From a virus (taxonomy: Duplodnaviria > Caudoviricetes), in IMG/VR virus record IMGVR_UViG_3300017778_002038, positions 1-29,863 of that record: a stretch of DNA of 29,863 nt; one strand, 5' to 3'. Positions 1,348 to 29,328 of this stretch are shown here, one piece after another (the first letter of the stretch is position 1; the number at the start of each line of letters is the position of its first letter). Under the pieces are notes generated by a model. The model was not told the origin of the DNA, made no database searches, and saw only the letters and a program-made list of their open reading frames with translations. Made by a program: the position numbers and the translations under genes.

Positions 1348-1348
1348 C

Positions 1349-2488
1349 ATGGCTATCCAATTTGACAACACTAACACAGGAAGCATAACTTTAGCGTCTC
1401 CAGCATCTGGCACCTGGTCGTTGACTTTTCCTCCTGCTTTCGGCACAACAGGTCAGTATTTAACGACAAACGGGGCAGGCGTGCTAGGTTACACCTCTGG
1501 TGGTGCAGCAACTACGATAACAGGTTTTACTTCTGCGCTGAACACATCATCGCCAAATGCCACTGTTAACGTAAGCTCTCTTACACCAACCGCTGTAAGC
1601 ACAGAAGTAGGGTTTGCGATTGTACCTAGAGGGTCTGGAAGTCTTTTAGCTTGCATACCAGACGGAACAACTACTGGAGGCAATGCAAGAGGCACTAAAA
1701 GTGTTGATTTACAGTTTGCAGGGCAAAGATCAGCAGCCACTCAGGTTGTTGGTTCTAACTGCGCAAGGTCTGCTATTTTAGGCGGCTATGGAAATTCGAT
1801 ATCAGGATTTAACACGGAATGTGTGATAGCAGGCGGTTACTTTAACACCATAGATAGTCTTGTCGCTAGTAGTTTTATAGGCGGCGGTTATTCAAATCAG
1901 ATTACAGGCTCGCCTAGTTTTCCTTGCTCAGCAATACTTGGAGGAAGAGATAACTACATTGACACTGCTGAAAAATCTGTACTTATTTTTGGGGGTAGAG
2001 GCGGCACTAACCACGGAAACTCAGGGTTTACAGCGGTGTATAGCGGTAATAATTTTGGCTTATCTACACCGAGAGGACAAACACAGACGAGGTTACAAGT
2101 ATTAAGCGGAAACCCTACATCAGCGACTTATGTAGACCTAGTTCTTACTCCAGCAAGCGCAGCTACAGCTTCATCGGTTAATACTACAAATTTACCTGCA
2201 GGGTACGTTATGCTATGTACTGGTACGGTGACAGGGTTTAAAACAACCACTTTTGGGATAGCAAACTGGAACGTGTCAGCTTTATTTAAAAGAGCAACTG
2301 CAGGTAATATAGTTTTAGTCGGTAACTCTGTAACTGCTAAAGGAACTGCTGGAACAGTAACAAACTTTAATGTCCAATGGGCGGCTAACACAACTACTCA
2401 AACAGGCGTTTTGCAAGCTAGGGCAAACGCTGCTGTGGTGAGGTACAACTGTTTTATGAACACTTTAGACTTAAAGGCTACGTTTTAA
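1349..2488 (+). CDS. Tail fibre / receptor-binding-like protein 2
   Basis: Start reassigned to ATG 1349 (MAIQFDNTNTGSITL), 1 nt after the upstream TAA and matching the paralog N-termini. Contains GTTGQYLTTNGAGVL, PDGTTTGGNARG and GGYxNxI repeats. Confidence 0.75.
   Translation: MAIQFDNTNTGSITLASPASGTWSLTFPPAFGTTGQYLTTNGAGVLGYTSGGAATTITGFTSALNTSSPNATVNVSSLTPTAVSTEVGFAIVPRGSGSLLACIPDGTTTGGNARGTKSVDLQFAGQRSAATQVVGSNCARSAILGGYGNSISGFNTECVIAGGYFNTIDSLVASSFIGGGYSNQITGSPSFPCSAILGGRDNYIDTAEKSVLIFGGRGGTNHGNSGFTAVYSGNNFGLSTPRGQTQTRLQVLSGNPTSATYVDLVLTPASAATASSVNTTNLPAGYVMLCTGTVTGFKTTTFGIANWNVSALFKRATAGNIVLVGNSVTAKGTAGTVTNFNVQWAANTTTQTGVLQARANAAVVRYNCFMNTLDLKATF
1658..1692 (+). repeat. 35-bp direct repeat, copy 1 (copy 2 at 3934-3968)
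   Basis: ccagaYggaacaactactggaggcaatgcaagagg, 34/35 identical between fibre genes 2 and 4. Confidence 0.9.
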
Positions 2489-2489
2489 A

Positions 2490-3626
2490 ATGGCTATACA
2501 GTTTGACAACAGCAATAATTTTAGCGTTACTTTAGCAGCCCCCAGCACTGGAGGTTCGACGTTAACTTTTCCAACATCAGACGGTACCATTGGTCAAACG
2601 CTTATAACAAGCGCTGCAGGTGTTTTAAGCTGGGGAGCTATTCCTGCAGCTGCCACTAGCGGATTAACTGGCACAATTAACACAACAGGAACAAACGCAA
2701 CAATTCACATAGACGCTCTGACCGTAAGCGCTACAGGTGCTAGCACAGACCAGCACATTGCTTTAATTCCTGGAGGCGCTGGAAATATATATGGCTACAT
2801 ACCTGCAACAGCAAAAGGTACAGGCTCATTTAATTTAAAACTTGACGACATTGTCGTCGGGAACTCTACTATAAGTGGCAATAATTCTGTTTTTATCGGT
2901 GGAGGCACAAACTTTTCAGTAGCAGAAACCAAAGGGCACACCGCGATTACTAGCTTTTACACGTCTTACGGGCAAAACTACAATGTAGGGCTATTGGTCG
3001 GAAACCGAGGTATTACTATACCTAGCTACATAGGGGTAAATGCTCCGTCTAATGATGATGGGTATAACGTAGGGGCTGTACTTCTTGCAAGCTCAGGCGC
3101 TGTTCGACTTAATGGCACAGGTCAAACAGCAATAGCGGGAGAACATACTAGAACTGCTTTTGACTATGAGCACGCTATTGGAGGTTATGGTTACGACGCC
3201 CCTAGTTACTTAGGGAACCCAACTCGGTACTCGTTTGTACATCTTGTAGGCCAAACTACAAATGCAACGCCTACAGGTTTGTATGCAAAAGAGAATACTA
3301 GTTTAGGTCTTAGTTTGGTGGCAGACACGGCACAAACTCAAGCAGCCTATCAATTTTGGGGAACAGTTGTTTGCGCTTCTAGCAGCACGTCAGGGTCAGC
3401 CAAGGCTTGGGAGTTTTCAGGGTGCGCAAAAGGGTTTAGTGCGGCATCTTATGCATTTGTTGGAACACCAACTGTAACGGCTTTACACGGAGACACTGCA
3501 ATATCCGCATATGCCGTGGCTATCACAATAACCAGCGGGGTTATATCAGTAACAGTGACAGGTGGGGCTTCTGATACAGTAAACTGGAATTGTCAGTTTA
3601 ACTTTATAAAAGTAGGGGCAAAGTAA
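2490..3626 (+). CDS. Tail fibre / receptor-binding-like protein 3
   Basis: MAIQFDNSNNFSVTL N-terminus, GTIGQTLITSAAGVLSW motif, C-terminal domain (TTNAT...KAW.F.G...VNW.C) paralogous to its neighbours. Confidence 0.75.
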   Translation: MAIQFDNSNNFSVTLAAPSTGGSTLTFPTSDGTIGQTLITSAAGVLSWGAIPAAATSGLTGTINTTGTNATIHIDALTVSATGASTDQHIALIPGGAGNIYGYIPATAKGTGSFNLKLDDIVVGNSTISGNNSVFIGGGTNFSVAETKGHTAITSFYTSYGQNYNVGLLVGNRGITIPSYIGVNAPSNDDGYNVGAVLLASSGAVRLNGTGQTAIAGEHTRTAFDYEHAIGGYGYDAPSYLGNPTRYSFVHLVGQTTNATPTGLYAKENTSLGLSLVADTAQTQAAYQFWGTVVCASSSTSGSAKAWEFSGCAKGFSAASYAFVGTPTVTALHGDTAISAYAVAITITSGVISVTVTGGASDTVNWNCQFNFIKVGAK

Positions 3627-3627
3627 A

Positions 3628-4794
3628 ATGGCAATAAACTTAGATAGTACAGGTTTAGGGACGTTTTCATTAAAGCCTCCGGCTTCTGCCGGAAACTACA
3701 CACTTACACTTCCTAGCTTTGCATCGATTAGCGGTGCGGCGCTGTCTACAGGACCAACAGGTGGCTTAAATTTTAATACACTCGGAACAGGTGCTTTTTC
3801 AACTGGGATAGCAAACACAGGCACAAATGCTACAAATTATGTAACAGCTATATATGCTGTAAGTGGTACAGTTAATCAAGATTTTGCCATAGCTAGAAGA
3901 ACCGGCAACGCGCCTTTTCTTATGGTGCAGGTTCCAGATGGAACAACTACTGGAGGCAATGCAAGAGGAACAAACAGTATAGATTTTCAAACTACAAGAA
4001 CTGCCGCATCACAAGTAGCAGCTGGAAATTATTCTGGTTTAATAGGGACTTCTACTTCTAGTGTTGGTAGCTCTAGGTCTGTTGTTTTGGCTGGTTCTGG
4101 TATGATTGTTAACGGAAGCAGCGGTAACGACCCTTCGCTATGGGTAGGTTGTAGGTCGATGTCAGGCGACAGTAGCACTAGTGGGTTTAAAGCATATATA
4201 GCGTGCTTTAGCCCAACTACTGACTCTTTTCAAACAAACCACGGCGCATACAATATTGTCGGTCCTGGCCAAACACTTTCAGGAACCTCAGCGTATTGTC
4301 ACCTTATGGGTAATGAAGGACCGACAGGAGGCGCAGCTAATGGGCTCATAGGTAAACGTCAAGTGCTATGGGCGCGTTCAACCACAAACACCGCCGTCCC
4401 TATGACAACAAATGGTGCAGCTGCAGGATCAGTGCCAGGAACTTCTAACATAGTGGTTTTTTATAGTTCTGACTATGATAGCATGTATGTACGGTTGCGT
4501 ATCATCGCGACTGTGGAACAAGCAGGGTCCAGTACGATAGGCGATACGGCGGCTTGGCTTTTAGAGTTTTACAGTTACAGACTAGTAGGCGTAGCGTCTG
4601 TAGTCACCACCGCAGTAACCAACACTCAATTGTACGGGGATGCAGGAACAACTGGCTGGTCAGTTGCTGTATCCGCTAACACAACACTTGGTAACAACGG
4701 CGGACCACTAATAACTTGTACGGGTCAACTTACAACTACCATACGCTGGCTTGGCTATATTGAAGTTGTAGAAATGAACGCCGTAAACATATAA
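3628..4794 (+). CDS. Tail fibre / receptor-binding-like protein 4
   Basis: MAINLDSTGLGTFSL N-terminus, PDGTTTGGNARGTNSIDFQ motif, shared C-terminal domain (TTNT...AAW...TIRW). Confidence 0.75.
   Translation: MAINLDSTGLGTFSLKPPASAGNYTLTLPSFASISGAALSTGPTGGLNFNTLGTGAFSTGIANTGTNATNYVTAIYAVSGTVNQDFAIARRTGNAPFLMVQVPDGTTTGGNARGTNSIDFQTTRTAASQVAAGNYSGLIGTSTSSVGSSRSVVLAGSGMIVNGSSGNDPSLWVGCRSMSGDSSTSGFKAYIACFSPTTDSFQTNHGAYNIVGPGQTLSGTSAYCHLMGNEGPTGGAANGLIGKRQVLWARSTTNTAVPMTTNGAAAGSVPGTSNIVVFYSSDYDSMYVRLRIIATVEQAGSSTIGDTAAWLLEFYSYRLVGVASVVTTAVTNTQLYGDAGTTGWSVAVSANTTLGNNGGPLITCTGQLTTTIRWLGYIEVVEMNAVNI
3934..3968 (+). repeat. 35-bp direct repeat, copy 2
   Basis: Matches 1658-1692 except for one C/T. Confidence 0.9.
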
Positions 4795-11634: not shown

Positions 11635-14600
11635 TGGGGTACGTAAAGAAAGTATACAGCAAAGCCTCAAACGCGTTATCCAAAGTCGATGACGAAATTT
11701 TACAGCCTATAAATAAGACCGTAGATACCATAGTACGTGACCCAAAACTTCTAGCCGCTGTGGCTATCTCAATTTACGCCCCTGGTGCGGGTTCAATGAT
11801 CGGAGAGTATATAGGGTTAGGTTCAGGAGCAATTGGTCAAGTAGCAGGTAATACTATTCTAAATACTGCGCTAAATGGCGGCAACACCAAGGCAGGGTTT
11901 ACGTCTGCTTTAATTCCTGTACTCGGTGGGGAAGTTACTCGTACTGTTACTTCACGATTAATGGATCCTTCTACGTTTAACATGAGCAAGGTGCTTGCAA
12001 CATCGCTGGGTTCTATGTCTGGTAGTATGGCGGCTGCCATCATTACAGGTGGCGATGTAAAACAAGCTGCTTTAAGCGGTCTAGCTACTAATATCCCAGC
12101 TATTTTAAGTAAAAATTCAACGTTTGCTTCACTGCCTAAGTCTGTTCAGTCTACACTAGCAGCTGGTGTGTCAGCATCTGTTACTGGAAGAGACGTGAAC
12201 GCAGCAATGTTGTCTGCAGGTATAGCCAGCGCTGATATTCTGGCTAGAGCAGTACAAGGTAACCCAACTTTAGCAGCAGCGTTTGCAGACCCTAAAAATG
12301 GTGCATCTGTAGCTCTAGCGGTTAACGCTGTAAATGCAGGAATAACTGCATCACTACAAGGCAAAGACGTAAGTACTGCTATTCAAGGCAATTTAGTTGG
12401 CACTTCGGCGAAAATGCTAACAAGCACCGCATCTCAAAATCTGCAGATGTACACGTCGAATGCTAAAAAATACTATGATCTCTCAAAAGACAATTTGTCT
12501 AAAATTGATGAGTTATCACAAAAACAAAATGATGCTTATAAAGCTTACAATGAATACAATAAGAATATCGCTGACAGGATCCCTGGGTTAGGCAAAACTG
12601 AGAATGAGATGCTTGCTAAAGCAGGCCAGTACCAAAAACTTTACTCAGAGCATGACGCTCTTGTGTCTTCTCTTAGAGCTGAGCAAGAGGCATACAACAA
12701 AGGCGTAGCTGAAGCACCTAAATTACAAGAGACAGCTAACGAATCGTACAAAAAACTAGACGCTATGCTGTATGAGTATAAAGCACAGCGAGCTATATAT
12801 GACAATCCTGCATGGGGTGCAGACGCAAGAAACGCTGCGGCGAACAAAATAAACGAGATTTCAGATCGGTATGAGACCGAGGAGAAAATATACACTTCGG
12901 CTACTAACAAGCTTAATGAGATAAGCACTGAATATAAAGATGATGCTGAGCGGTTAAAGCAGAATTCGACAAACCCCTTGCTGGCAAAACAATATTTCGA
13001 ATTGCGCGATTTAAAAACAGACGTTGACAAACTTGAAAAAGAGTACCAAGGTAAGATAGATGCGTATAAAAAAGATAGTGGCATCGTCGACGACCGCAGC
13101 TCACTAATTAAAGCCGCAGGTGATGCGTACAATGAGGAACTAGATCGGCTACGAAACGAGGCAGCAACAAACATCGATTTGATGAATGATTATGCCACTA
13201 AAGTACAAGGCTCACAAGATGAACTAACAGAGCTGTCATCTGATTCAGTTAACGAGTTATTAGATAACGAAAAAACACAAGGCGCTTTACCTGTTGACAA
13301 AGGCATTCAAGTAGTGTCGGCGGATGACAAGTTCATGCCTGAAATGAACGTACAAATTTCAGGCACGCCGATCTTTGGTGACGACCCTAGAAGTAAAAAT
13401 GTTGAACCTCCGCCTGGGTATCGTTTAGTTGACTCAAGTGAAGGAACACCTGCATACAATGAAGAGTATGACGCAAACGTTGACCCTGTAAAAGGCACGT
13501 TCTACGACATGGCTCAGAATGCTTGGTTTACAAAAGACAAAACACAAGAAGAAGATCTTGCCAAAATGCGTGACTGGTTGGCAGACTCAAAACCACCTGT
13601 TGGGTTTGGAAGTGTTTTACTTGAAGATGCGCAAAACCCTGACATTGAAGAAGCTGAGTCGCCGCTAACCAGTAGCCCTGAACTTGATCGTGCTGACGAA
13701 GGTGATGAAGATCTTTACAATGAGCTTGCACAACAAGACACGGCTGCAACTTCTGGAACATTGCCTACGATAGCTGATCGTGTTACACCGCGGACGCCGT
13801 TGCAAGTAGACAATGACCCTACAAACAGTGATTCATCCGGTTACTACACACCTGTAAATAACGATTCATCCGGTTACTACACACCTGTAAATAACGATTC
13901 ATCCGGTTACTACACACCTGTAAATGACGATTCATCCGGTTACTACAAATCACCGCTAACCAATAGCCCTGAACTTGATCGTGCTGACGAAGGTGATGAA
14001 GATCTTTACAACGGGCTTGGTGTGACTATTAAAAGTGAAAACCAAGCTTTTGGGCCTGGCATGTCGGAAGAAGACTTCATTAATAGTGAAGAAGAAGGCG
14101 ACATTACTTTTGAAGATTATGAAAGAGCAGGTGAAAAATACACCGAACCTACACAAACAACTAAGCCGCCTTTGTCTGTAAACGAAAAAGGCTTCATGAC
14201 TGAGCAAGATTTTATTGACAGTGAAGAAGAAGGCGATATTACATTTGAAGATTATGAAAGAGCAGCTGAGAGATACACGAACGATAGTTCGAGTGGCTCT
14301 ACTAAGACAGGCATATCTGTTCCGATTAAAACATCTACTGGTTCGTCAAGTGCGCTTAAACCGTCTACTACAATGTCGCCTACGCCTAGCGTTCCAGTTG
14401 TGCCATCAGAATCGTCTGACCCAGGTTCAAAAATTGCAGGTGGCACAACTTCAGTGGCTGCTGCCTTACCTGTTGCGCCGCAAGCTAACATGCTAGCAGC
14501 TGCACCGCTTATTGAAGCACAATCAGGCCTACAACAGCTTACACAGCTTTACCCACAGTTGGCAAATGTTCGACCTGACATTTTAAGCATGCTGTCAGGT

Positions 14601-16222: not shown

Positions 16223-17989
16223 ATGGCATTACCTACAACAGTAGTTCCGCCTGCGCCTGCCATGTTAGGCGCAGGTGAAGACAGAGCAAAACAAGAATAC
16301 TTTGCAGCGCTTCAGAAAACACTGTCTGCGCTTGAAGCACGAGCCAATCAAGGCACAAACTGGTGGCAAGTTGCAGGTGCATTGTTAAACCCTGGAAAGA
16401 CAGGCAGTCTTGGTGAATCACTTGGTAATGTTGCCAATGTGATGGGTGAACAGCAACAACGACAGCTTGATCAACAAATACCTATTGCACAAGCTCGTGC
16501 ACAAATTGCAGGACAAAAATACGAGATTGAGAGCCAAAGCAAAGCAATACAACTGCTATCTCAAGCAATTGGCGTTCCTCCACAAGTAGTGGCTCAGCAA
16601 CTATCTGACGGATCACTTTCACCTCAAGCTGTTGCAAATATTCCGCCGGCAGTGTACGCACAAATTGCAACTTTATCGCCTAAGGTTGGTGAAGTTGTGA
16701 AGAACATTGCTGATATGTCAAACAAGAATGCAAATTTAAATCTTGATCAGCGAAAATTTGACGAGACAAAGATACAGAACAAAATTGGAAATGCTCGTGA
16801 AGACCTTAAGTCAGGCATAAGCATAGCGGAACTGGTTGCTAAGTATGGTCAAGACATTGTAGGACTAATTTACACTAACAAGCCTGCATCTTCTGCAGGT
16901 GCAATGCCACCACCTGCTATTGGTGCAATGCCACCACCTGTTGCGCCACCTGCTATTGGTGCAATGCCACCGCCTGTTGCGCCACCTGTTGAACCACCAC
17001 CTGCTGCGCTACCTGTTGCGTCAAATAACCCAGGTACTTTTGGGGATCCTTCGGGGATGCCATCTGCAGTTCCTAGTGCTCTAGGGATGCCTGGACCATC
17101 GCCAAAGCCGATGCCTATTACACCACCTCCTGCAGCAGCACCACCAGCAGCAGTACCAGCGGCACCTCCAAAGTTAAGCATGACGCCACCTGCAAAACTG
17201 CCCTTAGACCAACAGCCTACCATAGCACCAAGCAAAAGTGCTTTGTACGGCAAGAATTCACAGCTTGGTGCCCCGCCTGATGTTGCCGGCGTTGTTAATG
17301 CAATTGACGATTTGTCTGGGTTGCCTTTGGCTACACAAGCTGAAGTTAAGAAGAAGAGACTGGAAGAAGGTGACAAAGTATGGCAAACCAAACGTGACGA
17401 GATCTTTTCGTACACGCCACAAACGCTACAAGGGTCAAACACTAATCTTCGACAGTTGGACTACTATGCAACTAAGTTCCCCAATATTTTTGCATTAATG
17501 CAACAGCAAGGAACGATTGCAGCTTTGCAACAAGCGGCACAAGACGGTATTACATTACAAGCAGGTCAGTTTAATGCACGTGTCGGCTTAAATGTTCGTG
17601 ACTTCTTACAAAAAGTAAAGCTTAATCCGAACGAGCAGCAAGCGGCTAGAGATGTTGGTCGAATTCTTGGTTCTGAATTCTTGAACAACTTGAAAACACA
17701 GCGTGGACTGCTAGGTGTTAACCCAACAGACAATGATGCTCGTTTGTTGCAAGCGCCTATGGCAAATATCGATGATTCATCCAAGGCAATGCAGTTATGG
17801 GCACGAAACCAACTGTTGCTGAACAAACAGCGTGAAGCTTTGTACGGTGGCTTACAAAAATATAGTCAACAAATAGGCCCAACTAGTTCGCCTGGTTCGT
17901 TCTTCAGACCAGGCAGCATTTACGAGAAGATCAACAATGACTATGCCAACTACCGCATGCAGTTGTTTAATCAATTCAACCCTAAATAG
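16223..17989 (+). CDS. Putative internal virion/ejection protein with Pro-rich linker
   Basis: 588 aa, GGAG SD at 16213-16216, helical Gln-rich ends, central Pro/Ala tract, GVNPTDNDARLL motif. Confidence 0.7.
   Translation: MALPTTVVPPAPAMLGAGEDRAKQEYFAALQKTLSALEARANQGTNWWQVAGALLNPGKTGSLGESLGNVANVMGEQQQRQLDQQIPIAQARAQIAGQKYEIESQSKAIQLLSQAIGVPPQVVAQQLSDGSLSPQAVANIPPAVYAQIATLSPKVGEVVKNIADMSNKNANLNLDQRKFDETKIQNKIGNAREDLKSGISIAELVAKYGQDIVGLIYTNKPASSAGAMPPPAIGAMPPPVAPPAIGAMPPPVAPPVEPPPAALPVASNNPGTFGDPSGMPSAVPSALGMPGPSPKPMPITPPPAAAPPAAVPAAPPKLSMTPPAKLPLDQQPTIAPSKSALYGKNSQLGAPPDVAGVVNAIDDLSGLPLATQAEVKKKRLEEGDKVWQTKRDEIFSYTPQTLQGSNTNLRQLDYYATKFPNIFALMQQQGTIAALQQAAQDGITLQAGQFNARVGLNVRDFLQKVKLNPNEQQAARDVGRILGSEFLNNLKTQRGLLGVNPTDNDARLLQAPMANIDDSSKAMQLWARNQLLLNKQREALYGGLQKYSQQIGPTSSPGSFFRPGSIYEKINNDYANYRMQLFNQFNPK
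16898..16993 (+). repeat. Imperfect in-frame tandem repeat encoding GAMPPP(V)A(PP)
   Basis: ggtgcaatgccacc occurs three times, with internal gccacctg units. Confidence 0.85.
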
Positions 17990-17996
17990 GTGATAC

Positions 17997-19190
17997 ATGG
18001 ACGACGATCTTTCTAAGATAGACCCTTTGTTTGCTGTACCTCCAGGTCAAACAGCGCCTGCTAGCGAAGAACAATCAGGCAATGCATTAGCAGACATTGA
18101 TCCTATTTTTGCAAACCCGATCGGTCCGTCCGCTGATGCAAGCAAGGGCTCGCCTCCGGCGCCTCCTCGTGACAATATGCCTGAAGTTGTAGGTGGCGCA
18201 GCAGGCACAGCAGTCGGCTTGTTTGCGCCTAAGTATGAAAACCCCAGACTTACATCTGCTAGAGCAGATTATGCAGGCTCTAGAGCTTCTGAAGGACAAC
18301 TACGAGGCGACCTTACACGTATGCAAGGCGATCGTCTTGATGCAGTAGACAATGCCAGATTTGCAATACAAGATGCAGATGCCGGCGTGAACATGGCAAG
18401 ACAAGAGCTGAATGCAGCTGAAGACGCGGCAAGACAACTTAATGCTTTGCCTGACGCACCTCAACCTCTTCCATCTGCAGATAATGTTGTGAAAGGCGCA
18501 TCTGATGTTGAAGGTTCACTAACACAAGGCGCGCTAAAACACTCTGAAAAGATGGGTGAAGTTAGAGAAGCCAACCAAGTCAGGAAAGGCATTGCGGGTT
18601 ACAAGCAAGGTCTGCCGACATCCGAACGTGTTCCTCTAACCGGTTATACACAGTCAAGCCGCTTGATCGTGCCGAATGAACTAGCCAATGCGCCTGTAAA
18701 ATCAGCTGCACAAATAGAAGCAGAAAACAGACTGAAAACCGCTAAAGATAATCATGCAGCTGCAGTTAAACAAGCTGCTGAAGCAAAAATGAAGCAAGAA
18801 TCAGCAGGCAAGCCTTCACGAACTGAGTCAAGTCTTTCTTCTGATGTTTCAAAGGCTTCAAGCACTACAGCAGGTAAGAAAGCAGCGCTGCAAGAACTGG
18901 AAAAAGCCAGAAGCTTCTTATCCAAGATCCCAGGGTTTAACACTCTTATGGGTGGATTATCAGGTGCCGAGCTTGTTCATGCTTACCGCCAAATTCGTGC
19001 AGGAAACACGTTGGATGGCGTAATGGCAGGTCTCAGTGGTGCAGGCGGCTTACTTGCCATGGCACCGCACCCTGTTGCAAAAGCGATCGGAACTGCTATG
19101 GCAGTGCCACCACTTGCATACCAAGCTTATCAGGCATACAAGGGTGACAATGCAGGTGTGCCGACACAGACAGACCCAATGGGCAACTAA
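17997..19190 (+). CDS. Putative internal virion protein (last gene of + strand arm)
   Basis: 397 aa, AGGTG SD, Ala-rich coiled coil and C-terminal Gly/Ala hydrophobic helices. Confidence 0.65.
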   Translation: MDDDLSKIDPLFAVPPGQTAPASEEQSGNALADIDPIFANPIGPSADASKGSPPAPPRDNMPEVVGGAAGTAVGLFAPKYENPRLTSARADYAGSRASEGQLRGDLTRMQGDRLDAVDNARFAIQDADAGVNMARQELNAAEDAARQLNALPDAPQPLPSADNVVKGASDVEGSLTQGALKHSEKMGEVREANQVRKGIAGYKQGLPTSERVPLTGYTQSSRLIVPNELANAPVKSAAQIEAENRLKTAKDNHAAAVKQAAEAKMKQESAGKPSRTESSLSSDVSKASSTTAGKKAALQELEKARSFLSKIPGFNTLMGGLSGAELVHAYRQIRAGNTLDGVMAGLSGAGGLLAMAPHPVAKAIGTAMAVPPLAYQAYQAYKGDNAGVPTQTDPMGN

Positions 19191-19480
19191 GCATGCTCAA
19201 TTGCAGCCTTAACATTTCGAATCATTGAATTCTGAAGTTGTTTAACTTCTTCAACTGTTAAAGTTGTTACACCATCGTGCTCTTCAGTTGATGCTTCTGT
19301 AATCTTAGTGTCAATTGCTCGACGTAACCGTTCACGCATCAGAATCTCGCCTACTGAGAACGCTTCAACCCAGATGTTATACGGGTCTTTAAGCAAATCT
19401 CTGCTTGACGTGTGTTCCAACAGCTTAATCCAGTCATCAAATGCTTGCTTGACATGAAAGTCGGTTGATGTAATGATCAT
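19187..19480 (-). CDS. Hypothetical protein
   Basis: 97 aa; ATGA overlap with the upstream gene; its stop overlaps the stop of the + strand gene. Confidence 0.65.
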   Translation of the reverse strand: MIITSTDFHVKQAFDDWIKLLEHTSSRDLLKDPYNIWVEAFSVGEILMRERLRRAIDTKITEASTEEHDGVTTLTVEEVKQLQNSMIRNVKAAIEHA

Positions 19481-20157
19481 AGTTCTTTTCCTTTAGTGTT
19501 AAGCCACATTCTTAAAGTCGACATACCGCCGTCAATTAGAACATGATTAGAAAACCGCTGATACTTGTGATACAGCGGATGGTTGATGAAGTTCTTCATA
19601 AGTAAGTATGCATCAGCATCAGGAGGATTCATACCCATAGCTCGATCAGTATCAATGCACTTAATGCTGTAAATGTCTTTAAACTCTTGACTGATTTTAT
19701 GCACTTGATCGTTTAGCAAACCAACAATGACAATCCTAGGCTTAGGCGTGTTTGTGGCGTCGTAAGTTGGGTCGTGCTTTTCAAGTCTGAACTCATGTTC
19801 CAACGTTTTAACAGCCGATCTAACTCGTGCCTTCACTATACCTGCAATTCGTTCAACAATTGCTTCAACTAGGCCGTCCAAACTGACTTCTGTCGGAGCC
19901 GATGAAGGCTCTACCATAGGAGTTGGCTCAGTTGGTGCCGCAGGCTTAAGATCGTTGGCAAATCTGTTCCTTAGCTTTTCAGTTAAGTTAGTGCATGATG
20001 AATGTGAACCAAATGCACGATGCCGATGTGATGGAATAACTAATTGTGCTTTCTTTAGAGCCTCATAAGCAGTGTACCAATTGAAGTGCATTAAGCGAAG
20101 AGCTTCAGTAAGAACAAGTTCTTCTTCAGCGCTTGTCCAACGAATTTTTGTTTTCAT
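19477..20157 (-). CDS. Hypothetical protein with N-terminal Myb/SANT-like helix motif and C-terminal alpha/beta domain
   Basis: Start reassigned to ATG 20157 (AAAGG SD upstream). KIRWTSAEEELVL resembles WTxEEDxxL; Pro-rich linker; RIVIVGLL...D(A)YLLM Rossmann-like C-terminal domain. Confidence 0.65.
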   Translation of the reverse strand: MKTKIRWTSAEEELVLTEALRLMHFNWYTAYEALKKAQLVIPSHRHRAFGSHSSCTNLTEKLRNRFANDLKPAAPTEPTPMVEPSSAPTEVSLDGLVEAIVERIAGIVKARVRSAVKTLEHEFRLEKHDPTYDATNTPKPRIVIVGLLNDQVHKISQEFKDIYSIKCIDTDRAMGMNPPDADAYLLMKNFINHPLYHKYQRFSNHVLIDGGMSTLRMWLNTKGKEL

Positions 20158-20416
20158 GTTTAACCTTTTTGCAGTATTTGAATTTAGTGACGAAGTAACG
20201 ATAGTGCCTGACACTTCTATTGAGTGCTTGCTTCTTTAGCTCAAATTCATTGCATACATCAACTTGACGATCAAGGTAGACGACAACCTGACTTAATGCT
20301 TTCACTGTGTGACTTTTCCAATTTGGATGGTCGGTGACAAAGTGCTTAAAGATTTGCTTACGCTTTGTTAGCGTCATTTTTGCTAGAGAACTCTGAATTT
20401 CAAACCAGTTGTTCAT
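20126..20416 (-). CDS. Hypothetical basic protein
   Basis: 96 aa, ATGA overlap with the stop of the ThyX-like gene. Confidence 0.6.
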   Translation of the reverse strand: MNNWFEIQSSLAKMTLTKRKQIFKHFVTDHPNWKSHTVKALSQVVVYLDRQVDVCNEFELKKQALNRSVRHYRYFVTKFKYCKKVKHENKNSLDKR

Positions 20417-21339
20417 ACGTGGTGTGTCTTGGTGATTGCATCAATTTGGTTAAGCAAGTCTTCACGAATTTTCAGGTAGGTGTCACTGCCTGCATATTCA
20501 TCACGCCCTTGCGTGTGGTAGAACTGTTCTTCACACCAGTCAAAGTTGTCATTCTTAGTATTAGGCGGAAAGATGTTTGTCTTGCCTTTGGCAGATTGCC
20601 GTTGGTAGAAAACATCAGGTTTACGGAAGTCCACCAGCCCTTGTAGGAATGGATACACCTTTAGAACTTCTAGCCATAGCTTCATAGCTATGATGTTGTC
20701 TACCGTCGTTTGAATTTGTTCATCACCGCGCATAATGCAGTAACCAATGAGGTCTTTAATTGTGCAACGTACCATGTAAAAGTGCTCAAAATTTCGCGGC
20801 ATAATAGTTCTAGTGTCAAGCCCATGGACCAAACCGCTATCAAGCATGTCCACATACAGGTCACGAGCCATCGTCGTAATTTGCTTATAACGTTCATAGA
20901 AGTCCTTGTTTGCCATGATGCCGGGTTTAACCATTACACGATCATCACGCATATCGCGATCACCGTGAACCTGTGCTGCAAAACTAAATAGCCGATGACG
21001 TATCAGATGTGTTGTATCAATCATGTCCATGCCGTTGACCGACCATGTGATGTTGATTGTTTCCATAGCGGTAGGTAACAGCTCATAGCGGAACAGTTCA
21101 TCAATTGTTTGGTCAATGTCTGCCTTTGGAAAATCCCATTGGATCTTGTCATTCCATGTGTTCATTAAGAACACTGAAATTGTTTTACGAAACTGGTCAA
21201 CCGTAGGCGCATGGACGATCTGAACGTCTATGTTTTCCAGCTGGTTAACAAATTCGATAGGGCCAGGTTTCTTACCGAATTTAAGTGTTGTGTGCATCTT
21301 TTGTAGATGCGGCATTTGTGCTTTATTGACTTTAGACAT
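20413..21339 (-). CDS. thyX: Divergent ThyX-family (flavin-dependent thymidylate synthase-like) protein
   Basis: TAMETINITWSV, HLIRHRLFSF (RHR FAD-binding motif), D.R.IMP, and MRGDEQIQ (equivalent to LR...AQ); the canonical RHRx7S serine is absent. Confidence 0.75.
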   Translation of the reverse strand: MSKVNKAQMPHLQKMHTTLKFGKKPGPIEFVNQLENIDVQIVHAPTVDQFRKTISVFLMNTWNDKIQWDFPKADIDQTIDELFRYELLPTAMETINITWSVNGMDMIDTTHLIRHRLFSFAAQVHGDRDMRDDRVMVKPGIMANKDFYERYKQITTMARDLYVDMLDSGLVHGLDTRTIMPRNFEHFYMVRCTIKDLIGYCIMRGDEQIQTTVDNIIAMKLWLEVLKVYPFLQGLVDFRKPDVFYQRQSAKGKTNIFPPNTKNDNFDWCEEQFYHTQGRDEYAGSDTYLKIREDLLNQIDAITKTHHV

Positions 21340-21613
21340 TTGTGTTTTCTTTCATGAGTTGTAGTTCTACTAGTCTTGCATATCCTGCAATGTCTGTCCA
21401 GCTATCCACATGGGATGGCGATACAGCCAAGCGAGAAAGTTTCATGGCGATCTTAGAGAGATAAATAACATGGACAGGATCCATTTCTACATTGTGTTGC
21501 TTGCGATACCTGTCCTTTATATTTTCAAGGATAACTGCCTCTAATGAAACACCTTCAAAAAAATCACCGTAAACCTCGCCTCTCTGTTCTAAGACTTGAT
21601 CTGTCGTTTTCAT
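21332..21613 (-). CDS. DUF6378-like small helical protein
   Basis: L.QRG..YGDF N-terminus and K.SR......H.DSW.DIAGYA.L C-terminus, a recognisable phage family found near nucleotide-metabolism genes. Confidence 0.7.
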   Translation of the reverse strand: MKTTDQVLEQRGEVYGDFFEGVSLEAVILENIKDRYRKQHNVEMDPVHVIYLSKIAMKLSRLAVSPSHVDSWTDIAGYARLVELQLMKENTNV

Positions 21614-22122
21614 GGCAGCACCTCGTAAGGTTGAAGTTTTTCCTCAAGTTTAGCTAACCGTTTTGCGCTATTTTCGTGGACGTCTACCATGTAGCCGCCA
21701 TTGCCTAAGCCTATCTCGTTAGCCGAATACTGAAGGCACTGAAGTGCATCGGCATAATGGACGACCAATGCTTCAGTCGTATCACCGTGGTATAGGCCAC
21801 AATAGTCTCTAACTTGTTCTGGAAAGCCTTTCACAATTTCATGTTCAGCTTTCTTAAGCGCATCAGCAACTATTGGAAAGTTCTTCTTGACCAAGTGGTT
21901 TACATCAGATATTTCCATTTCAGCCAAGTCATGGCATATGGCAATCTTGACTGCTTTGTCAACATCAAACTTGTACGTTTTTGATAGCATGAGAACGCCA
22001 AGAGCTACGAAGAAACTATGTGTTGCAACGCTTTCTTGGTGAACCACAGGCTTCATGCTGTAACGCTTGGTGTGTTCAAGCGTGTAGCTTTGCATAAAGA
22101 ATGAAAAGTCGCCTTTATTCAT
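21610..22122 (-). CDS. HD-domain phosphohydrolase (YfbR/DatZ-like 5'-deoxynucleotidase family)
   Basis: KRY...ESVATHS (first His), ICHDLAE...SDV (HD motif), VHYADAL (distal Asp). Confidence 0.85.
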   Translation of the reverse strand: MNKGDFSFFMQSYTLEHTKRYSMKPVVHQESVATHSFFVALGVLMLSKTYKFDVDKAVKIAICHDLAEMEISDVNHLVKKNFPIVADALKKAEHEIVKGFPEQVRDYCGLYHGDTTEALVVHYADALQCLQYSANEIGLGNGGYMVDVHENSAKRLAKLEEKLQPYEVLP

Positions 22123-22576
22123 AGCTGATGTTTTCTTCAGACCAGTTACGGCGAACGAAGACCTCTTCTATCTTTATCTCATCTAAAGCCCTAACCAGCT
22201 CTGGGTATGAGCGCACAACTGAACCTGATGCTGCCAACACCAAGTTAAATTTCTGACCAGGCTGTCCACCAAGCCAGACATAAATGATAGGAATGAGTTT
22301 TGCATAACACCAGCCTGCTTCAAACATTGTGCCGGGGTCTTTACCATCCGTGATGCAAATGGTTAAGTCAGTTTTGTTTAGTGCTACCAAGTTAATGTCA
22401 AGCACTTGTTCTGGCGTTGTTTTGCTTGGCTCATACAGGCATTCATCCTTGGGGCTAAAGTACTTGAAGCTTTGCCTCTCTAAGATGCTTTTAATTTCTT
22501 CTACAATGGCAATTTGTTCTGGGTTAAAGAACGGGCCTGCAATGTAGACATACGGATGCTTTGTGATTGTTTCCAT
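22115..22576 (-). CDS. Nucleoside 2-deoxyribosyltransferase / nucleotide N-glycosidase family protein
   Basis: VYIAGPFFN, FSP, DPGTMFEAG (catalytic Glu) and FNLVL motifs; AAGGA SD upstream. Confidence 0.85.
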   Translation of the reverse strand: METITKHPYVYIAGPFFNPEQIAIVEEIKSILERQSFKYFSPKDECLYEPSKTTPEQVLDINLVALNKTDLTICITDGKDPGTMFEAGWCYAKLIPIIYVWLGGQPGQKFNLVLAASGSVVRSYPELVRALDEIKIEEVFVRRNWSEENISYE

Positions 22577-22592
22577 TTAGTTCCTTACAGTT

Positions 22593-22655
22593 AAGAATTT
22601 TTGTTTGTTTACTTAGTAAACATTTGCATTGTACCATGCTTTAGAAAAGTAAACA
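22593..22655 (-). promoter_or_regulatory. Conserved promoter/operator element, copy 1
   Basis: Extended -10 TGGTACAAT on the - strand (22636-22628), palindrome TGTTTACT-T-AGTAAACA at 22606-22622, extra AGTAAACA half-site at 22648-22655; near-duplicate at 28871-28934. Confidence 0.75.
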
Positions 22656-22664
22656 CTTTTTTCG

Positions 22665-24321: not shown

Positions 24322-24950
24322 GGACCGCCATTGTCTTTACGGTAATGACAAAACTTACACAAGCCTGACGGATTAGCAGCATAGATGCTGTCTGACTGAA
24401 GCTGTTTGATCCGTGTTACTAGGCTTGTTTGCAGATCAGCAAGATGGCCACGAATAATTGTGTTGTATGACCTGTACTTTTTAAGGTCAACAAATTCAAT
24501 GCCAATGTTAACAGCATCTATGTGTGGTTTAGTTGCTAAGATAACAGCTGCATACACAGCCACTTGGTCAGTGTAATCTCTGTCTTTGCCTGTCTTAAAG
24601 TCTAGAACCGTAGCTTCATTGTCTTGTTCCATGTACAAGTCAATTACGCCGCGAAACCATGCTATTGGATCGTCATATTCCACAGCTTTCCAGTCTTTGT
24701 CAACCGCAAACTTCATTTCAGACTGTGCCTTTAGTCCGATCCAAGTCGCAATCTTAGGCAACAAGTGTTGGACTTCATCTGAAATGATAGTAAGACCACC
24801 GTTCAGAATGTTTTCAATCTCTGAATGGATCATTGTGCCTCTACTAGCAGCAGCACCGGTAGGTTGAGGAAGTCTGTCTATACGATTGAACTTGTACTGA
24901 GCAGGGCACTGCTCGTATTGCTTGACTGCAGAATAGGAATAAGCCATCAT
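24309..24950 (-). CDS. PD-(D/E)XK exonuclease (RecB/Cas4-like)
   Basis: SYS....YEQCP, RGT.IH, GVIDL, LDFKTGK, QVAVYA and C-terminal CxxC...C (four Cys, Fe-S/Zn type). Confidence 0.88.
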   Translation of the reverse strand: MMAYSYSAVKQYEQCPAQYKFNRIDRLPQPTGAAASRGTMIHSEIENILNGGLTIISDEVQHLLPKIATWIGLKAQSEMKFAVDKDWKAVEYDDPIAWFRGVIDLYMEQDNEATVLDFKTGKDRDYTDQVAVYAAVILATKPHIDAVNIGIEFVDLKKYRSYNTIIRGHLADLQTSLVTRIKQLQSDSIYAANPSGLCKFCHYRKDNGGPCKW

Positions 24951-26767
24951 TTAACCTCAGCAAAATTAGCACCGATCTTGGCATCGGCAATCAGTGGCAC
25001 ATCAAGCTTAAATGAGTTAATCATGCAAGTGGCTAGTTTGTCGGCTTCACGTTGTACAACATCAACCCTGGCTGAGATAATCAATTCATCATGCAAGGAT
25101 AACAGCAATCGGCTATCTTTGGCAACCCGCCAATAGTCGATCATTGCCTGTTTTGTCATGTCTGCACCACTGCCTTGAATCAGCGTGTTTAATGACTTAA
25201 AGCCAAAGTTCATAAGCTTACCGTTGATGATCTTAGGCGGTTCACCTTTAACCAGCCTGCCACCAATGGTCGAGAACGGGGCTCGGATCTTGTATCTGGA
25301 CATCAAATCGTTGTTCACTTTGTCCAACCCAGGGGCTACCTCAGACTTATAAAGATCTATCAACTGACGGGCTTCTGAATAAGGTATGCCTAACATTTCA
25401 CATATCTTCTTAGGGCCTGCACCGTACAAGATGCCAAAGGACATTGTTTTAGCATAGTCCCTGATGACTGTCTTGCCAGACTTTTCACTCATTAAGTTGG
25501 CTGCAAAAGCATGAAGGTCTGCATTGGGGTCTTGCCTGTACTGTTCAGCCAGCTTACCGTCCTCGAAGTGTGCAAACAGTCGTAGCTCTTGTGCTTGAAA
25601 GTCAGCAGCTGCCATCATATGCCCTTCATCAGGTAGTATGAACTGTCTGACTTTAGGTATTATGAGACCTTGTAACTCTGTAGGCAGTGAGGTCTTTGGC
25701 CCACGTGTAGGCATGGTCTGAAGTGTAGGCTTTGCCGATAGCCGACCGGTTCTTGTACCACCAATCTCGCCTCTTACCGTGTTCCATTCAGTAAAGATCC
25801 TGCCTGTCGTGGCTGATTGTTCTAACCACGGTTCAAGGTACGTACCTGTTAGCTTTGTCAACACATCTCGATGCCGTAATACTGATGATAGTTCATCATC
25901 GGTCAGCATGTCTTTTAGTGTTTCTTTGTCGGACAGTGGCGTACCTTTGTCGCTGGTTGGCCACTTCTTTGTCTTGTCATAAACGCCTTTAGACATTACA
26001 ACGTTTACTAATTGCACACCAGAATTAAAGTTAATGTCTTCAGTGTTGAAGTATTTGTACAACCACACTTCACACATTTCAATGTCAGACTTAGCTTTTT
26101 CCAAACAAGCCTTCATGCCTTCCGTGTCAACACGTATTCCAAGCTTACTGTTCTCAAGAAGCACTGGCATAAGCTGTATTTCACGAAGGTAGGCAACTGG
26201 CATTGTCCTGCGTACTTCTTCAGTAAAGTCAAACAGTTCAGCCGTTAGTCTAACGTCAGCACAAGCGTACTTTCCCACAAGATTAGCCGGTCCACGTGCA
26301 ATATAAGCACCTGCAGTCTTAGGTTTCTTTCTGACTTCAGGTATATGCATTTCAAGCCAAATGAATAGCTCATCACGTTCCTCCGGCTTAATGCCTAACC
26401 ATTCTTTGCATAGCTCTTTTAGTGACAAACTACGAACATAAGGGTCAAACAGGAAAGCAAGTACAAGTGTGTCATGTAAATGTTCGGCAGGTGGCAATGG
26501 TATGTCAAACTTTTCATAGATCACCGACAAGTCGAACATTGCATTGTGGAAACACATATGACGGCCTGATTCGAAGATCTTAATGAGTAATTCACGGACC
26601 GTATTAAAGTCCGTATTGTTGTTTGAGTCATGCGCAAATGACCAATATGTAGACTCAAACTGCCCAGTCCTATCAAGAACCGCCAAGCCGACAGGGGCAG
26701 GAGGGTAATGATGAGGACGTGGGCCGATTGCTTCCGTCTCAAAGTCGAGGAAGATTGGATCAGACAT
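24947..26767 (-). CDS. polA: Family A DNA polymerase with 3'-5' exonuclease
   Basis: Exo I DFET, Exo II HNAMFD, Exo III YACAD; TRTGRLS, motif A DFQAQELR, motif B RDYAKTMSFGILYG, NTLIQGSGAD, motif C LHDE. Confidence 0.95.
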   Translation of the reverse strand: MSDPIFLDFETEAIGPRPHHYPPAPVGLAVLDRTGQFESTYWSFAHDSNNNTDFNTVRELLIKIFESGRHMCFHNAMFDLSVIYEKFDIPLPPAEHLHDTLVLAFLFDPYVRSLSLKELCKEWLGIKPEERDELFIWLEMHIPEVRKKPKTAGAYIARGPANLVGKYACADVRLTAELFDFTEEVRRTMPVAYLREIQLMPVLLENSKLGIRVDTEGMKACLEKAKSDIEMCEVWLYKYFNTEDINFNSGVQLVNVVMSKGVYDKTKKWPTSDKGTPLSDKETLKDMLTDDELSSVLRHRDVLTKLTGTYLEPWLEQSATTGRIFTEWNTVRGEIGGTRTGRLSAKPTLQTMPTRGPKTSLPTELQGLIIPKVRQFILPDEGHMMAAADFQAQELRLFAHFEDGKLAEQYRQDPNADLHAFAANLMSEKSGKTVIRDYAKTMSFGILYGAGPKKICEMLGIPYSEARQLIDLYKSEVAPGLDKVNNDLMSRYKIRAPFSTIGGRLVKGEPPKIINGKLMNFGFKSLNTLIQGSGADMTKQAMIDYWRVAKDSRLLLSLHDELIISARVDVVQREADKLATCMINSFKLDVPLIADAKIGANFAEVK

Positions 26768-27510
26768 TAATACTTGCCAGACTTTTCAGCAGATGCTTGT
26801 TCAGGTGCTGCATCTTCTTCAACACCTGCAGTTGCAATTGCCGCCTCAAGTTCTTTCTCACCACGAGCAACCAATGCCTTAATGACGTCCATATCATCAA
26901 TAGTGCGAACAAAGTCAAAGTTAAGTTTAAACTGTGTTTTTGCATCAGGCACTAAGCTAATTTTTGTCACAACAGCTGACAATGGGCGACGTGTAGTACT
27001 AGCGATCTTCTGCAAGTATGTAGCAAAGCCGCGAACACTAGTTACAGGTGTGCGAAGTGCTGCCACTTCACCGCCATTTACACCATCAACTGATACAGCT
27101 GAATCAGCAGTCATCACTAAAAGCCGACGCTTTTCAGCGCATGCTTTACCTTTACCACCGTTTGTAGCACTACCCCATTGGTCTTTAGGGCAACCTGCAC
27201 ATGTGTCGGCTTGCTTTTCAGGCGACAAGTGATTAGCCTTAAGACCTGTCAATGTTGCACCAAGTGAGAAGCATACAGGACCGGCGGGGTTGGTTGGGTC
27301 ATACCTAGCTGTGTAGTACAAGCGTTCTACAGGCGAACTAAGAATCACAACTTCCAACTGATTGTTTGCAATTGGGTTATCTCGGTAAGTAAGAACACCG
27401 CCTTTAGTGCTAAGAAACTGTGTTCCAGCAGTACTACGTTCCGCCACCATACCGGCATTTGCCAGCTTTTCCATTTCAGACTCGAATAAAGCTAATTGGT
27501 TTTTAGACAT
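26767..27510 (-). CDS. Putative ssDNA-binding/annealing protein
   Basis: 247 aa with P.CFS, CxxCP..QWGS...GKGKAC motif and acidic C-terminal tail, immediately upstream of the polymerase. Confidence 0.65.
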   Translation of the reverse strand: MSKNQLALFESEMEKLANAGMVAERSTAGTQFLSTKGGVLTYRDNPIANNQLEVVILSSPVERLYYTARYDPTNPAGPVCFSLGATLTGLKANHLSPEKQADTCAGCPKDQWGSATNGGKGKACAEKRRLLVMTADSAVSVDGVNGGEVAALRTPVTSVRGFATYLQKIASTTRRPLSAVVTKISLVPDAKTQFKLNFDFVRTIDDMDVIKALVARGEKELEAAIATAGVEEDAAPEQASAEKSGKY

Positions 27511-27521
27511 TTTGAAAACTC

Positions 27522-27896
27522 CTATTTTCGTGATTTAGTTACAGAAAGACCCCACACCTCAGCAGTGGTAGACCCGGGGATGGTCTCACCGGCTTCCCAA
27601 CGATCTTTGAAAGCAGTGCTACTGAGCCTTTTATGAAGTAAGTCAAAGCTGTTAGTCTTGGTGACGTACTCATAAAACAAATCCCAATCCATGATGGTTG
27701 GGTGAACTTTTTTTGCCATGGTTACTGAATGGCCACGTTCGGATGCAGCTTTCATTGTTCCTGCTTCATTCATCGCGTGCATGATGTCAGATTCTAAAGT
27801 AGCAAGTTGTTTAGATAGTTCGCTATCTTTTTCAGCCAAATCAGTTCTTAGCTGTTTAACCGTGACATAGTTGTCTATTAAGTCATTCAATTTCAT
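27522..27896 (-). CDS. Conserved phage replication-region protein
   Basis: Start reassigned to ATG 27896 (MKLNDLIDNY; GGAAG upstream). Coiled coil followed by P...DWD.FY.YV......DLL.KR...GE.IPG. Confidence 0.7.
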   Translation of the reverse strand: MKLNDLIDNYVTVKQLRTDLAEKDSELSKQLATLESDIMHAMNEAGTMKAASERGHSVTMAKKVHPTIMDWDLFYEYVTKTNSFDLLHKRLSSTAFKDRWEAGETIPGSTTAEVWGLSVTKSRK

Positions 27897-28350
27897 TTTC
27901 TTCTTCCAAATTAAGAGGGTCGTAAAGATGTACGTCCAATTTAGCTTCATTAAACATAACCTCTGCAATTTTGCGTGAATCATTCCAGCGTTCAACTGGG
28001 TTATCTATTGTGACATGATGCTTTATGCCTGATTGAATAATCATAGCAGCGCATTGTGAACATGCATGCATTGGCCAAGTGTAAATTGTGCAATTGTCTA
28101 ATGGTTGTTTAGCAAATAAAATAGCGTTTACTTCAGCATGAATGGTCATCATTAGCTTTGTGTTTCGATGCAGCAACCAATCATCATGGTCACTTATACC
28201 TCGAGGAAAACCATTAAAGCCAGTGCTTACGATTTCATTGTTTGCATTTACAATTACTGCACCGCATTTTGTTGACGGATCTTTTGACCATGACGCAACT
28301 AAACGAGCCATTTTAAGATAGCGTATACGCCATTTGCTAGACTGTAGCAT
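27883..28350 (-). CDS. dCMP deaminase
   Basis: SKDPSTKCGAVI, GFNGFP, HAEVNAI (Zn His/catalytic Glu), CSQC and IIQSGI. Confidence 0.92.
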   Translation of the reverse strand: MLQSSKWRIRYLKMARLVASWSKDPSTKCGAVIVNANNEIVSTGFNGFPRGISDHDDWLLHRNTKLMMTIHAEVNAILFAKQPLDNCTIYTWPMHACSQCAAMIIQSGIKHHVTIDNPVERWNDSRKIAEVMFNEAKLDVHLYDPLNLEEENEIE

Positions 28351-28846: not shown

Positions 28847-28870
28847 TTGTTACCTTTGTTTTCAGAATTT

Positions 28871-28934
28871 AAGAATTTAAGTGTGTTTACTAAGTAAACA
28901 AGTGCATTGTACCATGCTTTTTGCAAAGTAAACA
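28871..28934 (-). promoter_or_regulatory. Conserved promoter/operator element, copy 2
   Basis: Palindrome TGTTTACT-A-AGTAAACA at 28884-28900, TGGTACAAT on the - strand (28914-28906), extra AGTAAACA at 28927-28934. Confidence 0.75.
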
Positions 28935-28935
28935 T

Positions 28936-29328
28936 TTATTTACGATTTTTTGCAAGTAAAAGCAAGGCAATCATGTCCTCTGGTCCTCGCCAATCGGCAG
29001 GCTTCATAGCATCTTGCTGTGTGCCACGATTAGTTTCACCTGGCACTTTTTTCATGTTGCAACTATGCACAATGTCTAAGATTTGTGGCAATGGCAAACC
29101 CATGTGATGAGCACAACCCATAGTCACGTATGCCAGATCGGCAATTGCATCAGCTGCATCTGTTAAGCTGCCTTTTTCGTGTGCTTTTAGCAGCTCTGAC
29201 AGTTCTTCCATGAGGAACCTAGCATAGAAGCTAATGTCAACAGGCTCCAGCAACTTTGGTTGCATTGATACAGGCAAGTTAAGCTTGGTGCGAAACTCTA
29301 AAACTTTGTCGAATATTTCTTGGTTCAT
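28936..29328 (-). CDS. MazG-like / PRA-PH family all-alpha NTP pyrophosphohydrolase
   Basis: EELSEL...DAIADLAYV acidic metal-binding helices, VH..NM.K and KP..W..PE tail. Confidence 0.85.
   Translation of the reverse strand: MNQEIFDKVLEFRTKLNLPVSMQPKLLEPVDISFYARFLMEELSELLKAHEKGSLTDAADAIADLAYVTMGCAHHMGLPLPQILDIVHSCNMKKVPGETNRGTQQDAMKPADWRGPEDMIALLLLAKNRK

Follow-up and report, generated by a model that had tools for sequence, protein, structure and literature searches.

The 29,863-nucleotide window analysed here (positions 1 to 29,863 of IMG/VR virus record IMGVR_UViG_3300017778_002038; Duplodnaviria, Caudoviricetes) encodes on its minus strand a compact cassette of four genes: an NDT-family N-deoxyribosidase/transferase, an HD-domain phosphohydrolase, the small protein DUF6378 and a divergent ThyX-fold flavoprotein. 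The feature is real and conserved, and we consider it probable that the cassette makes some modified pyrimidine. The single best reading, to which we assign a probability of about 40%, is by analogy with known enzymes: the cassette would make a 5-(polyhydroxypentyl)uracil nucleotide before replication through a folate-free ThyX reaction that joins deoxyribose to uracil. The ThyX-like protein would then belong to a phage-restricted, widespread ThyX offshoot acting as a folate-independent flavin C-alkyltransferase, which attaches deoxyribose freed by NDT to C5 of dUMP.

The ThyX-like protein (20413..21339, minus strand; 308 aa; Thy1 domain, E 2e-10) keeps the ThyX fold while its catalytic positions are remodelled, in keeping with its initial annotation as an atypical ThyX. 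Its AlphaFold model (mean predicted local distance difference test score 95) best matches ThyX structures (Foldseek E 1e-10), and a comparison with canonical ThyX structures gives E 3e-13. Residues were mapped by sequence alignment, using an ungapped alignment to Mycobacterium tuberculosis ThyX and a 115-row alignment. The protein retains R114-H115-R116 (the RHR flavin motif), R177 and R204; the equivalents of Thermotoga maritima R147 and R174 are thereby kept, and R204, the R174 equivalent, is invariant in 43/43 rows. The folate-histidine motif GHxSxxEH has become LLPTAME, and the SxRY loop (SQRY) has become VHGDR, within a loop that reads FAAQVHGDR. Of the canonical RHRx7S motif with S88, R90 and Y91, the window protein matches only the RHR part. 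Among the 115 rows, the His form occurs in 10, all within a canonical-looking clade, and the SxRY form in 11; Asp occupies window position 127 in 70 rows, and Cys is common at the S88 slot.

Published work on ThyX indicates what these positions do in the canonical enzyme. H53 of T. maritima ThyX stacks the folate (PMC11940539), S88 and Y91 touch the flavin carbinolamine, the mutants S88A, R90A and Y91A strongly slow the carbinolamine step, R174 activates dUMP, and free formaldehyde can be used via a carbinolamine on flavin N5 (PMC8316439). Retention of the R174 equivalent together with loss of the folate His and SxRY thus suggests that the nucleotide-activating side has been kept and the carbon-donor side rebuilt. 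No gene of the region is better conserved than the ThyX-like one (84-92% where NDT is at 45-73%), which is therefore not decaying. Its family is large, with 159 clusters at 50% identity when matches down to E 0.001 are admitted (canonical ThyX makes up the weakest of them), and a pattern scan of 185,579 prokaryote genomes returned three ThyX-like loci, all on contigs of metagenome-assembled genomes with phage-like neighbours. Relative to canonical ThyX (T. maritima TM0449, M. tuberculosis 3GWC/2AF6), with which the window protein shares the fold, the RHR motif and the R147/R174 equivalents, the window family lacks H53, carries (C/V)xGDR for SxRY, has extra N- and C-terminal segments, is phage-restricted and is linked to NDT.

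The neighbourhood of the ThyX-like gene, whose conservation had been proposed as a check on the cassette, is retained across unrelated phages. The comparison took in 119 loci in which 2.6 kb or more of sequence precedes the ThyX-like gene, a redundant set whose members are not independent. NDT lies near the ThyX-like gene in 116 of them, and the three loci that miss it are truncated on the flank where NDT stands in the rest of their group; this count spans the nearer half of the ThyX-like family, the neighbourhoods of the far clades P0159 and P0219 not having been found. A deoxynucleotidase is present in all 119 loci, as an HD protein in 107; in the other 12 an NT5C nucleotidase fusion immediately precedes the ThyX-like gene, and a canonical ThyX lies 3-6 kb away. 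DUF6378 occurs in 95/119 loci, and elsewhere its place is taken by a kinase-like gene or a different small helical protein. These counts thus define a core of deoxynucleotidase, NDT and ThyX-like protein, with DUF6378 outside the invariant core; among the partners named, NDT is more constant than any other. A non-thymine product, as first proposed from the divergence of the ThyX-like protein, is likely on sequence grounds because the ThyX catalytic positions are remodelled, the neighbourhood is conserved and a canonical ThyX stands alongside in the 12 loci.

Relatives of the cassette vary in their additional genes. The window itself encodes a dCMP deaminase (27883..28350, minus strand; family match), the likely source of dUMP, and a MazG/PRA-PH-like all-alpha pyrophosphatase (28936..29328, minus strand; family match). 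Several relatives have the dCMP deaminase relocated directly behind the ThyX-like and MazG-like genes, and in distant relatives a MazG/PRA-PH-fold gene follows or precedes the cassette. Distant versions contain kinase-NDT fusions or adjoining kinase-like genes, carry TylF and FkbM methyltransferases within the cassette, and are flanked by UDG, dUTPase-like genes, kinases and polymerases; one has a GT2-ThyX fusion by a weak match (E 2e-4, under the cut-off). Geobacillus phage GR1 (OK896991), an unrelated siphovirus, resembles the window in its ThyX-like gene (37% identical), its NDT (the best match, 41%) and its HD gene, and differs in adding a glycosyltransferase (by annotation), a kinase-like gene, a nitroreductase and a truncated ThyA-like gene; its DNA chemistry is not reported in the papers we found. 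The kinase, glycosyltransferase and methyltransferase partners point to a hydroxylated product.

Other genes near these cassettes deserve mention. Truncated or divergent ThyA-fold genes lie directly behind the ThyX-like gene at L095:9039-9947, L096:9019-9558, L097:9002-9598, L105:3539-4192 and L081:14939-15394, in each case with Asp at the dCMP-specificity position. The cassette of L095 has a UDG located inside it, and in large phages (L099-L112) genes for Fpg-like and HhH-GPD glycosylases lie 1.5-3 kb ahead of the ThyX-like gene, clustered with the cassette. Both complete relatives have a phosphoribosyltransferase just upstream of the MazG-like gene (L090:10019-10453 and L094:16688-17125), which could salvage the base released by NDT. 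A bacterial locus (L220:7678-9533) places a QueC-like gene beside a sugar-kinase-NDT fusion with the signature described below and has no ThyX-like neighbour.

The NDT protein (22115..22576, minus strand; 153 aa; PF05014, E 1e-13) best matches the N-deoxyribosyltransferase structure 6EVS, then 5VTO. It carries an N61-D79-E85-N110 (N-D-E-N) signature common to the NDTs of SP-15-type phages. The signature is found in 87/92 window-type rows, in 6/9 SP-15-type domain rows (of the other three, one is cut short and two are degenerate second domains) and in 1/13 bacterial control rows, a set that includes several weak Pfam matches. Nucleoside-type NDTs have a catalytic Glu, an Asp and an Asn that bind the 5'-OH, and a general-acid Asp; the window NDT keeps the Glu, Asp and Asn, and the general-acid Asp is Asn in 89/92 window-type rows and in 1/13 bacterial controls. 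DNPH1 and MilB, the nucleotide N-glycosidases to which the protein had initially been compared, have, ahead of the catalytic Glu, a Ser that binds phosphate where the Asp would stand. The window NDT reads DPGTMFE, without this Ser, and its signature is of the nucleoside type instead. The adjoining HD protein (21610..22122, minus strand; 170 aa; HD_3/YfbR-like, E 1e-16) is a YfbR/DatZ-like deoxynucleotide phosphohydrolase by family and matches a dATP triphosphohydrolase PHROG. DUF6378 (21332..21613, minus strand; 93 aa; E 6e-8) returned only DUF6378 in an Atlas search.

A comparison with phages of known DNA chemistry connects this gene set to pentyl-linker thymine. The DNA of SP-15 and Carin-5 is described as carrying a thymine linker of T+88 and that of YerA41 one of T+104 (PMC12686479; PMC13697223). 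All three phages, SP-15 (genes 127-130), Carin-5 (018/049) and YerA41 (081/086), pair an N-D-E-N NDT with a degenerate Thy1 and, like the window, encode a deaminase (dCMP/dCTP) and PolA. Homologues of SP-15 gp130 occur in 10 phage records, representing nine distinct phages, with an NDT found in each; no NDT was found in the four polymerase relatives RP13, phiLo, IME392 and TM30. A search of 50,697 phage records with the window NDT gave six matches (GR1, four gp130-type phages and one unannotated Listeria contig), of which five have a degenerate ThyX. The Carin-5 NDT matched eight records, 8/8 with a degenerate ThyX, and a control search with the second NDT of GR1 picked out 37 records that form a different set. 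In phage GXN1, NDT, HD and a gp130-type ThyX follow one another as in the window, and its NDT is nested in the window-type clade with 97% SH-like support (FastTree). In phage LIS04 the gp130 slot is occupied by a degenerate ThyX of a single domain.

Judged by its genes, the cassette works like the SP-15 gene pairing and is not a member of that group by a gp130 test. SP-15 gp130, at about 400 aa, has the look of two ThyX halves joined in tandem, whereas the 308-aa window protein is similar to it at the fold level only. SP-15 and its kin also have sugar-modification clusters and a UDG-fused polymerase, neither of which was detected for the window (glycosyltransferases were sought in two relatives); the window's family A DNA polymerase (PolA; 24947..26767, minus strand; family match, with a 3'-5' exonuclease) has 606 aa and no UDG match.

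Among individual genes of these phages, YerA41 gene 086 (L084:9380-9916), annotated as a mannosyltransferase, is an NDT (PF05014, E 8e-14) that is 61% identical to Carin-5 gene 018. Directly behind the Carin-5 NDT lies the ferredoxin-reductase-like gene 017 (L082:9525-10367), a candidate for a +104 to +88 deoxygenation. YerA41 gene 084 (L084:8242-8739), annotated as a structural protein, matches the anti-CBASS protein Acb1 (E 1e-14).

Published work on the SP-15 base frames the proposal. A 1978 paper title states that ribose label enters the SP-15 base (cited in PMC5977210), dihydroxypentyluracil of SP-15 is made before DNA synthesis, and gp130 has been proposed to be a hydroxymethyluridylate synthase (PMC5977210). 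The 2025-2026 Carin-5 and YerA41 papers describe the pentyl pathway as still undeciphered and discuss a hydroxymethyl-uracil route (PMC12686479; PMC13697223). By calculation, joining 2-deoxyribose to uracil with loss of water and gain of two hydrogens gives T+104.05, which equals the YerA41 linker mass; ribose instead gives T+120.04. We propose deoxyribose transfer to dUMP because of this mass match, the 1978 ribose-label title and the use of a free aldehyde by canonical ThyX. NDT is suggested to supply the carbon chain because its signature is of the nucleoside type, no other partner is as constant, and it goes with phages whose DNA has pentyl-linker thymine.

Starting from the genes, fold, residue changes and co-occurrence described above, we infer every chemical step of the following route. 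The dCMP deaminase and MazG-like enzyme would, from their families, supply dUMP, and the HD enzyme would remove phosphate from some deoxynucleotide. NDT would cleave the resulting nucleoside, releasing or handing over 2-deoxyribose, an aldehyde when open. By analogy with formaldehyde in canonical ThyX, the ThyX-fold enzyme would capture this aldehyde on reduced flavin N5 and, after its transfer to C5 of dUMP and reduction, yield 5-(3,4,5-trihydroxypentyl)-dUMP (T+104 Da). With a kinase of host or phage and the phage's own PolA, the product would enter DNA, replacing part of the thymine, and the modified base would protect the DNA from host nucleases. The base would remain undecorated in the window clade, and in relatives it would be decorated with sugar, phosphate or methyl groups. 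Under this scheme HD and NDT would feed the pathway rather than solely destroy a competing nucleotide. The initial annotation had assigned that sole role to the NDT, HD and MazG enzymes, which is not supported as it was put, given an NDT that is nucleoside-type, most constant and associated with pentyl-linker phages.

Several observations weigh against the deoxyribose-to-uracil proposal. Any chemistry ascribed to window-type members is predicted from genes, and the 119 loci are redundant, as noted above. The likeness of the window protein to gp130 is at the fold level only (BLAST E 0.19; profile probability 0.4% and 49%) and weaker than its likeness to canonical ThyX structures; direct homology or orthology to gp130 was considered and is not shown by these scores. 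In the tree, the remaining SP-15-type NDTs do not form a resolved group with the window clade. A prediction that YerA41, with its +104 linker, would be without the SP-15 SDR failed, as YerA41 has a homologue. Measured linkers are phosphorylated, whereas a window-type NDT should release unphosphorylated sugar, and many metagenomes readily yield sequence of the phage, an argument against a bulky base. Scans of two complete relatives (43 and 60 ORFs; PolA, the helicase and some further ORFs lay outside the rescan) found no kinase, glycosyltransferase, second ThyX or ThyA, and one kinase search was weak and missed known kinase-like genes. Such a gene content fits ordinary dTMP supply or would call for kinases of the host. 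At distant loci, the ThyA-fold neighbours at L095-L097, L105 and GR1 have Asp after RSxD, which we take to be the dCMP-specificity position, and at those loci this favours a cytosine product.

The cassette could make a different modified pyrimidine, the ThyX-fold enzyme hydroxylating, hydroxymethylating or methylating dCMP or dUMP while HD and NDT destroy the canonical competitor, the scheme of the initial annotation. We hold this alternative to be doubtful. It draws on the same residue loss and accessory genes, and Asp127 in 70/115 rows could read the cytosine amino group, with Cys common at the S88 slot and degenerate ThyA-fold neighbours at the loci just named; a published phage NDT from restriction-resistant DNA is a dA-preferring transglycosylase (bioRxiv 2025.10.22.683976). 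It leaves unexplained why the window NDT subfamily tracks pentyl-linker phages and outdoes every other partner in constancy, its one-carbon chemistry would need the lost folate site, and the window clade has no ThyA match. Ordinary dTTP supply or salvage, in which an atypical but functional thymidylate synthase works while nucleotidase and NDT recycle host nucleotides, would fit a ThyX-like gene that is the sole Thy1/ThyA gene in three complete relatives, sits beside a dCMP deaminase, is accompanied in complete relatives by no kinase or decorating enzyme, and has homologues that some databases label thymidylate synthase (FAD). We judge it unlikely: the folate His and the SxRY loop are lost, mutation of S88, R90 or Y91 strongly slows the canonical step, a canonical ThyX is also present in the 12 loci and in SP-15, and dTTP supply would gain nothing from dephosphorylating and cleaving nucleotides.

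More improbable is a product kept out of DNA, the cassette depleting or reshaping host nucleotide pools or countering nucleotide-based defence. Two hydrolase families at the core and the lack of a kinase in the window clade agree with this, whereas the kinases, UDG, dUTPase-like genes and polymerases that flank distant versions, and the modified DNA of SP-15-type phages with the same gene pairing, do not. A Z-genome (diaminopurine) module is largely refuted. The PurZ-DatZ-MazZ-DpoZ cluster has a common logic with the window, a synthase combined with HD and MazG-like hydrolases and PolA, and the dATP triphosphohydrolase PHROG match of the HD protein is in its favour. The window is without PurZ, however, and its synthase has a pyrimidine-enzyme fold; the analogy drawn initially fails here, an adenylosuccinate-synthetase-family gene being found in 0/16 records (5 complete IMG/VR genomes and 5 GenBank genomes among them). 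Nor does the DatZ W20/I22 pattern (W-x-I) occur in any of 72 HD rows; the window HD reads Y-S-M, and Y-x-T occurs in 5/72. A further analogy, with phages of the SPO1 type that contain hydroxymethyldeoxyuridine, extends to a dCMP deaminase and to the pre-replicative replacement of T proposed for the window. Those phages use a ThyA-fold hydroxymethylase, and here the analogy fails: a ThyA-fold dUMP hydroxymethylase was found in 0/5 relatives. By sequence, then, the cassette is not a canonical ThyX, Z or hydroxymethyldeoxyuridine system.

The same preprint bears on the Z-genome comparison. Restriction-resistant, dZ-enriched aquatic contigs are described there as carrying NDT, YfbR-like HD and PolA together, not beside PurZ, and these are read as dZ genes; one such NDT swaps purines and prefers dA, and the authors note that selection by restriction resistance can admit other modifications (bioRxiv 2025.10.22.683976). 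As a lead only, some of these contigs may be window-type cassettes, because PurZ is found in 0/16 records and the preprint's Y-x-T motif in 5/72 HD rows. Our literature search, which mostly did not cover subscription journals, turned up neither a description of this cassette nor one of a ThyX with deoxyribose as its donor.

The window represents half of a podovirus-like phage genome, with plus-strand virion genes to 19190 followed by minus-strand replication genes; complete relatives have 56-58 kb, and the runs containing the stretch are freshwater metagenomes. All four minus-strand cassette ORFs and their families were recovered where the initial annotation had placed them, the NDT/HD/DUF6378/ThyX-like junctions overlapping by 8, 4 and 8 nt in that order. 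A fifth minus-strand open reading frame (20416-20126) overlaps the ThyX-like stop by 4 nt, and the unit therefore probably extends past 20413. It belongs to three coupled minus-strand ORFs downstream of the ThyX-like gene (19187-20416; 96, 245 and 97 aa) with no family match, of which the 96-aa gene is retained in most close relatives. Five contigs from RNA runs match the window at 99% or more (151-246 nt), four of them within or at the edge of the cassette, although contigs assembled from an RNA library do not demonstrate transcription.

Upstream of NDT lies a promoter-like element (22591..22660, minus strand) with a TGTTTAC box, an extended -10-like TGGTACAAT and a downstream palindrome TGTTTAC-N3-GTAAACA. 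A second copy (28869..28934, minus strand), recognised by repeat and palindrome, stands ahead of the glycosylase-like/dCMP deaminase/PolA operon. The two share a 52-nt repeat that is 88% identical (22591-22642 and 28869-28920); the palindrome has exact matches in the window only at 22606 and 28884, and at up to two mismatches it has three matches against 0.29 expected. The box-plus-TAnnnT pattern lies between helicase and NDT in 28/46 distinct relatives. A plain sigma-70 scan of the window did not list the element, and the designation promoter is therefore inferred; the element resembles T4 early promoters. The initial description of a dedicated element with one other copy thus stands as to the two copies and the dCMP deaminase and PolA behind the second, just upstream of which the MazG-like gene ends, as described. 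The gene immediately behind that copy is a weak pyrimidine-dimer-glycosylase match (E 0.002, under the cut-off), and the label SSB for 26767-27510 was not confirmed, the gene having no Pfam match and matching only PHROGs of unknown function. Elsewhere in the window, tandem and dispersed repeats (33-nt units; proline-rich units) lie within large virion/ejection protein genes (13659-14278 and 16886-17015), and four paralogous tail-fibre-like genes of 380-440 aa with similar starts and common segments occur in succession on the plus strand (25-4794).

The origin of the SP-15 pentyl side chain has been an open question since the 1970s. If the deoxyribose-to-uracil proposal is true, it would fill in the first step that is lacking for the bases of SP-15, Carin-5 and YerA41 and provide a new flavin enzyme chemistry, and a gene signature to predict modified genomes in metagenomes as well as a way to add a polyol handle to DNA. 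The cassette is a minimal version of the SP-15-type gene pairing that is amenable to a three-enzyme in vitro test, and GR1 is cultured. Under the same proposal, an abundant freshwater podovirus-like group would carry bare trihydroxypentyl-uracil in its DNA.

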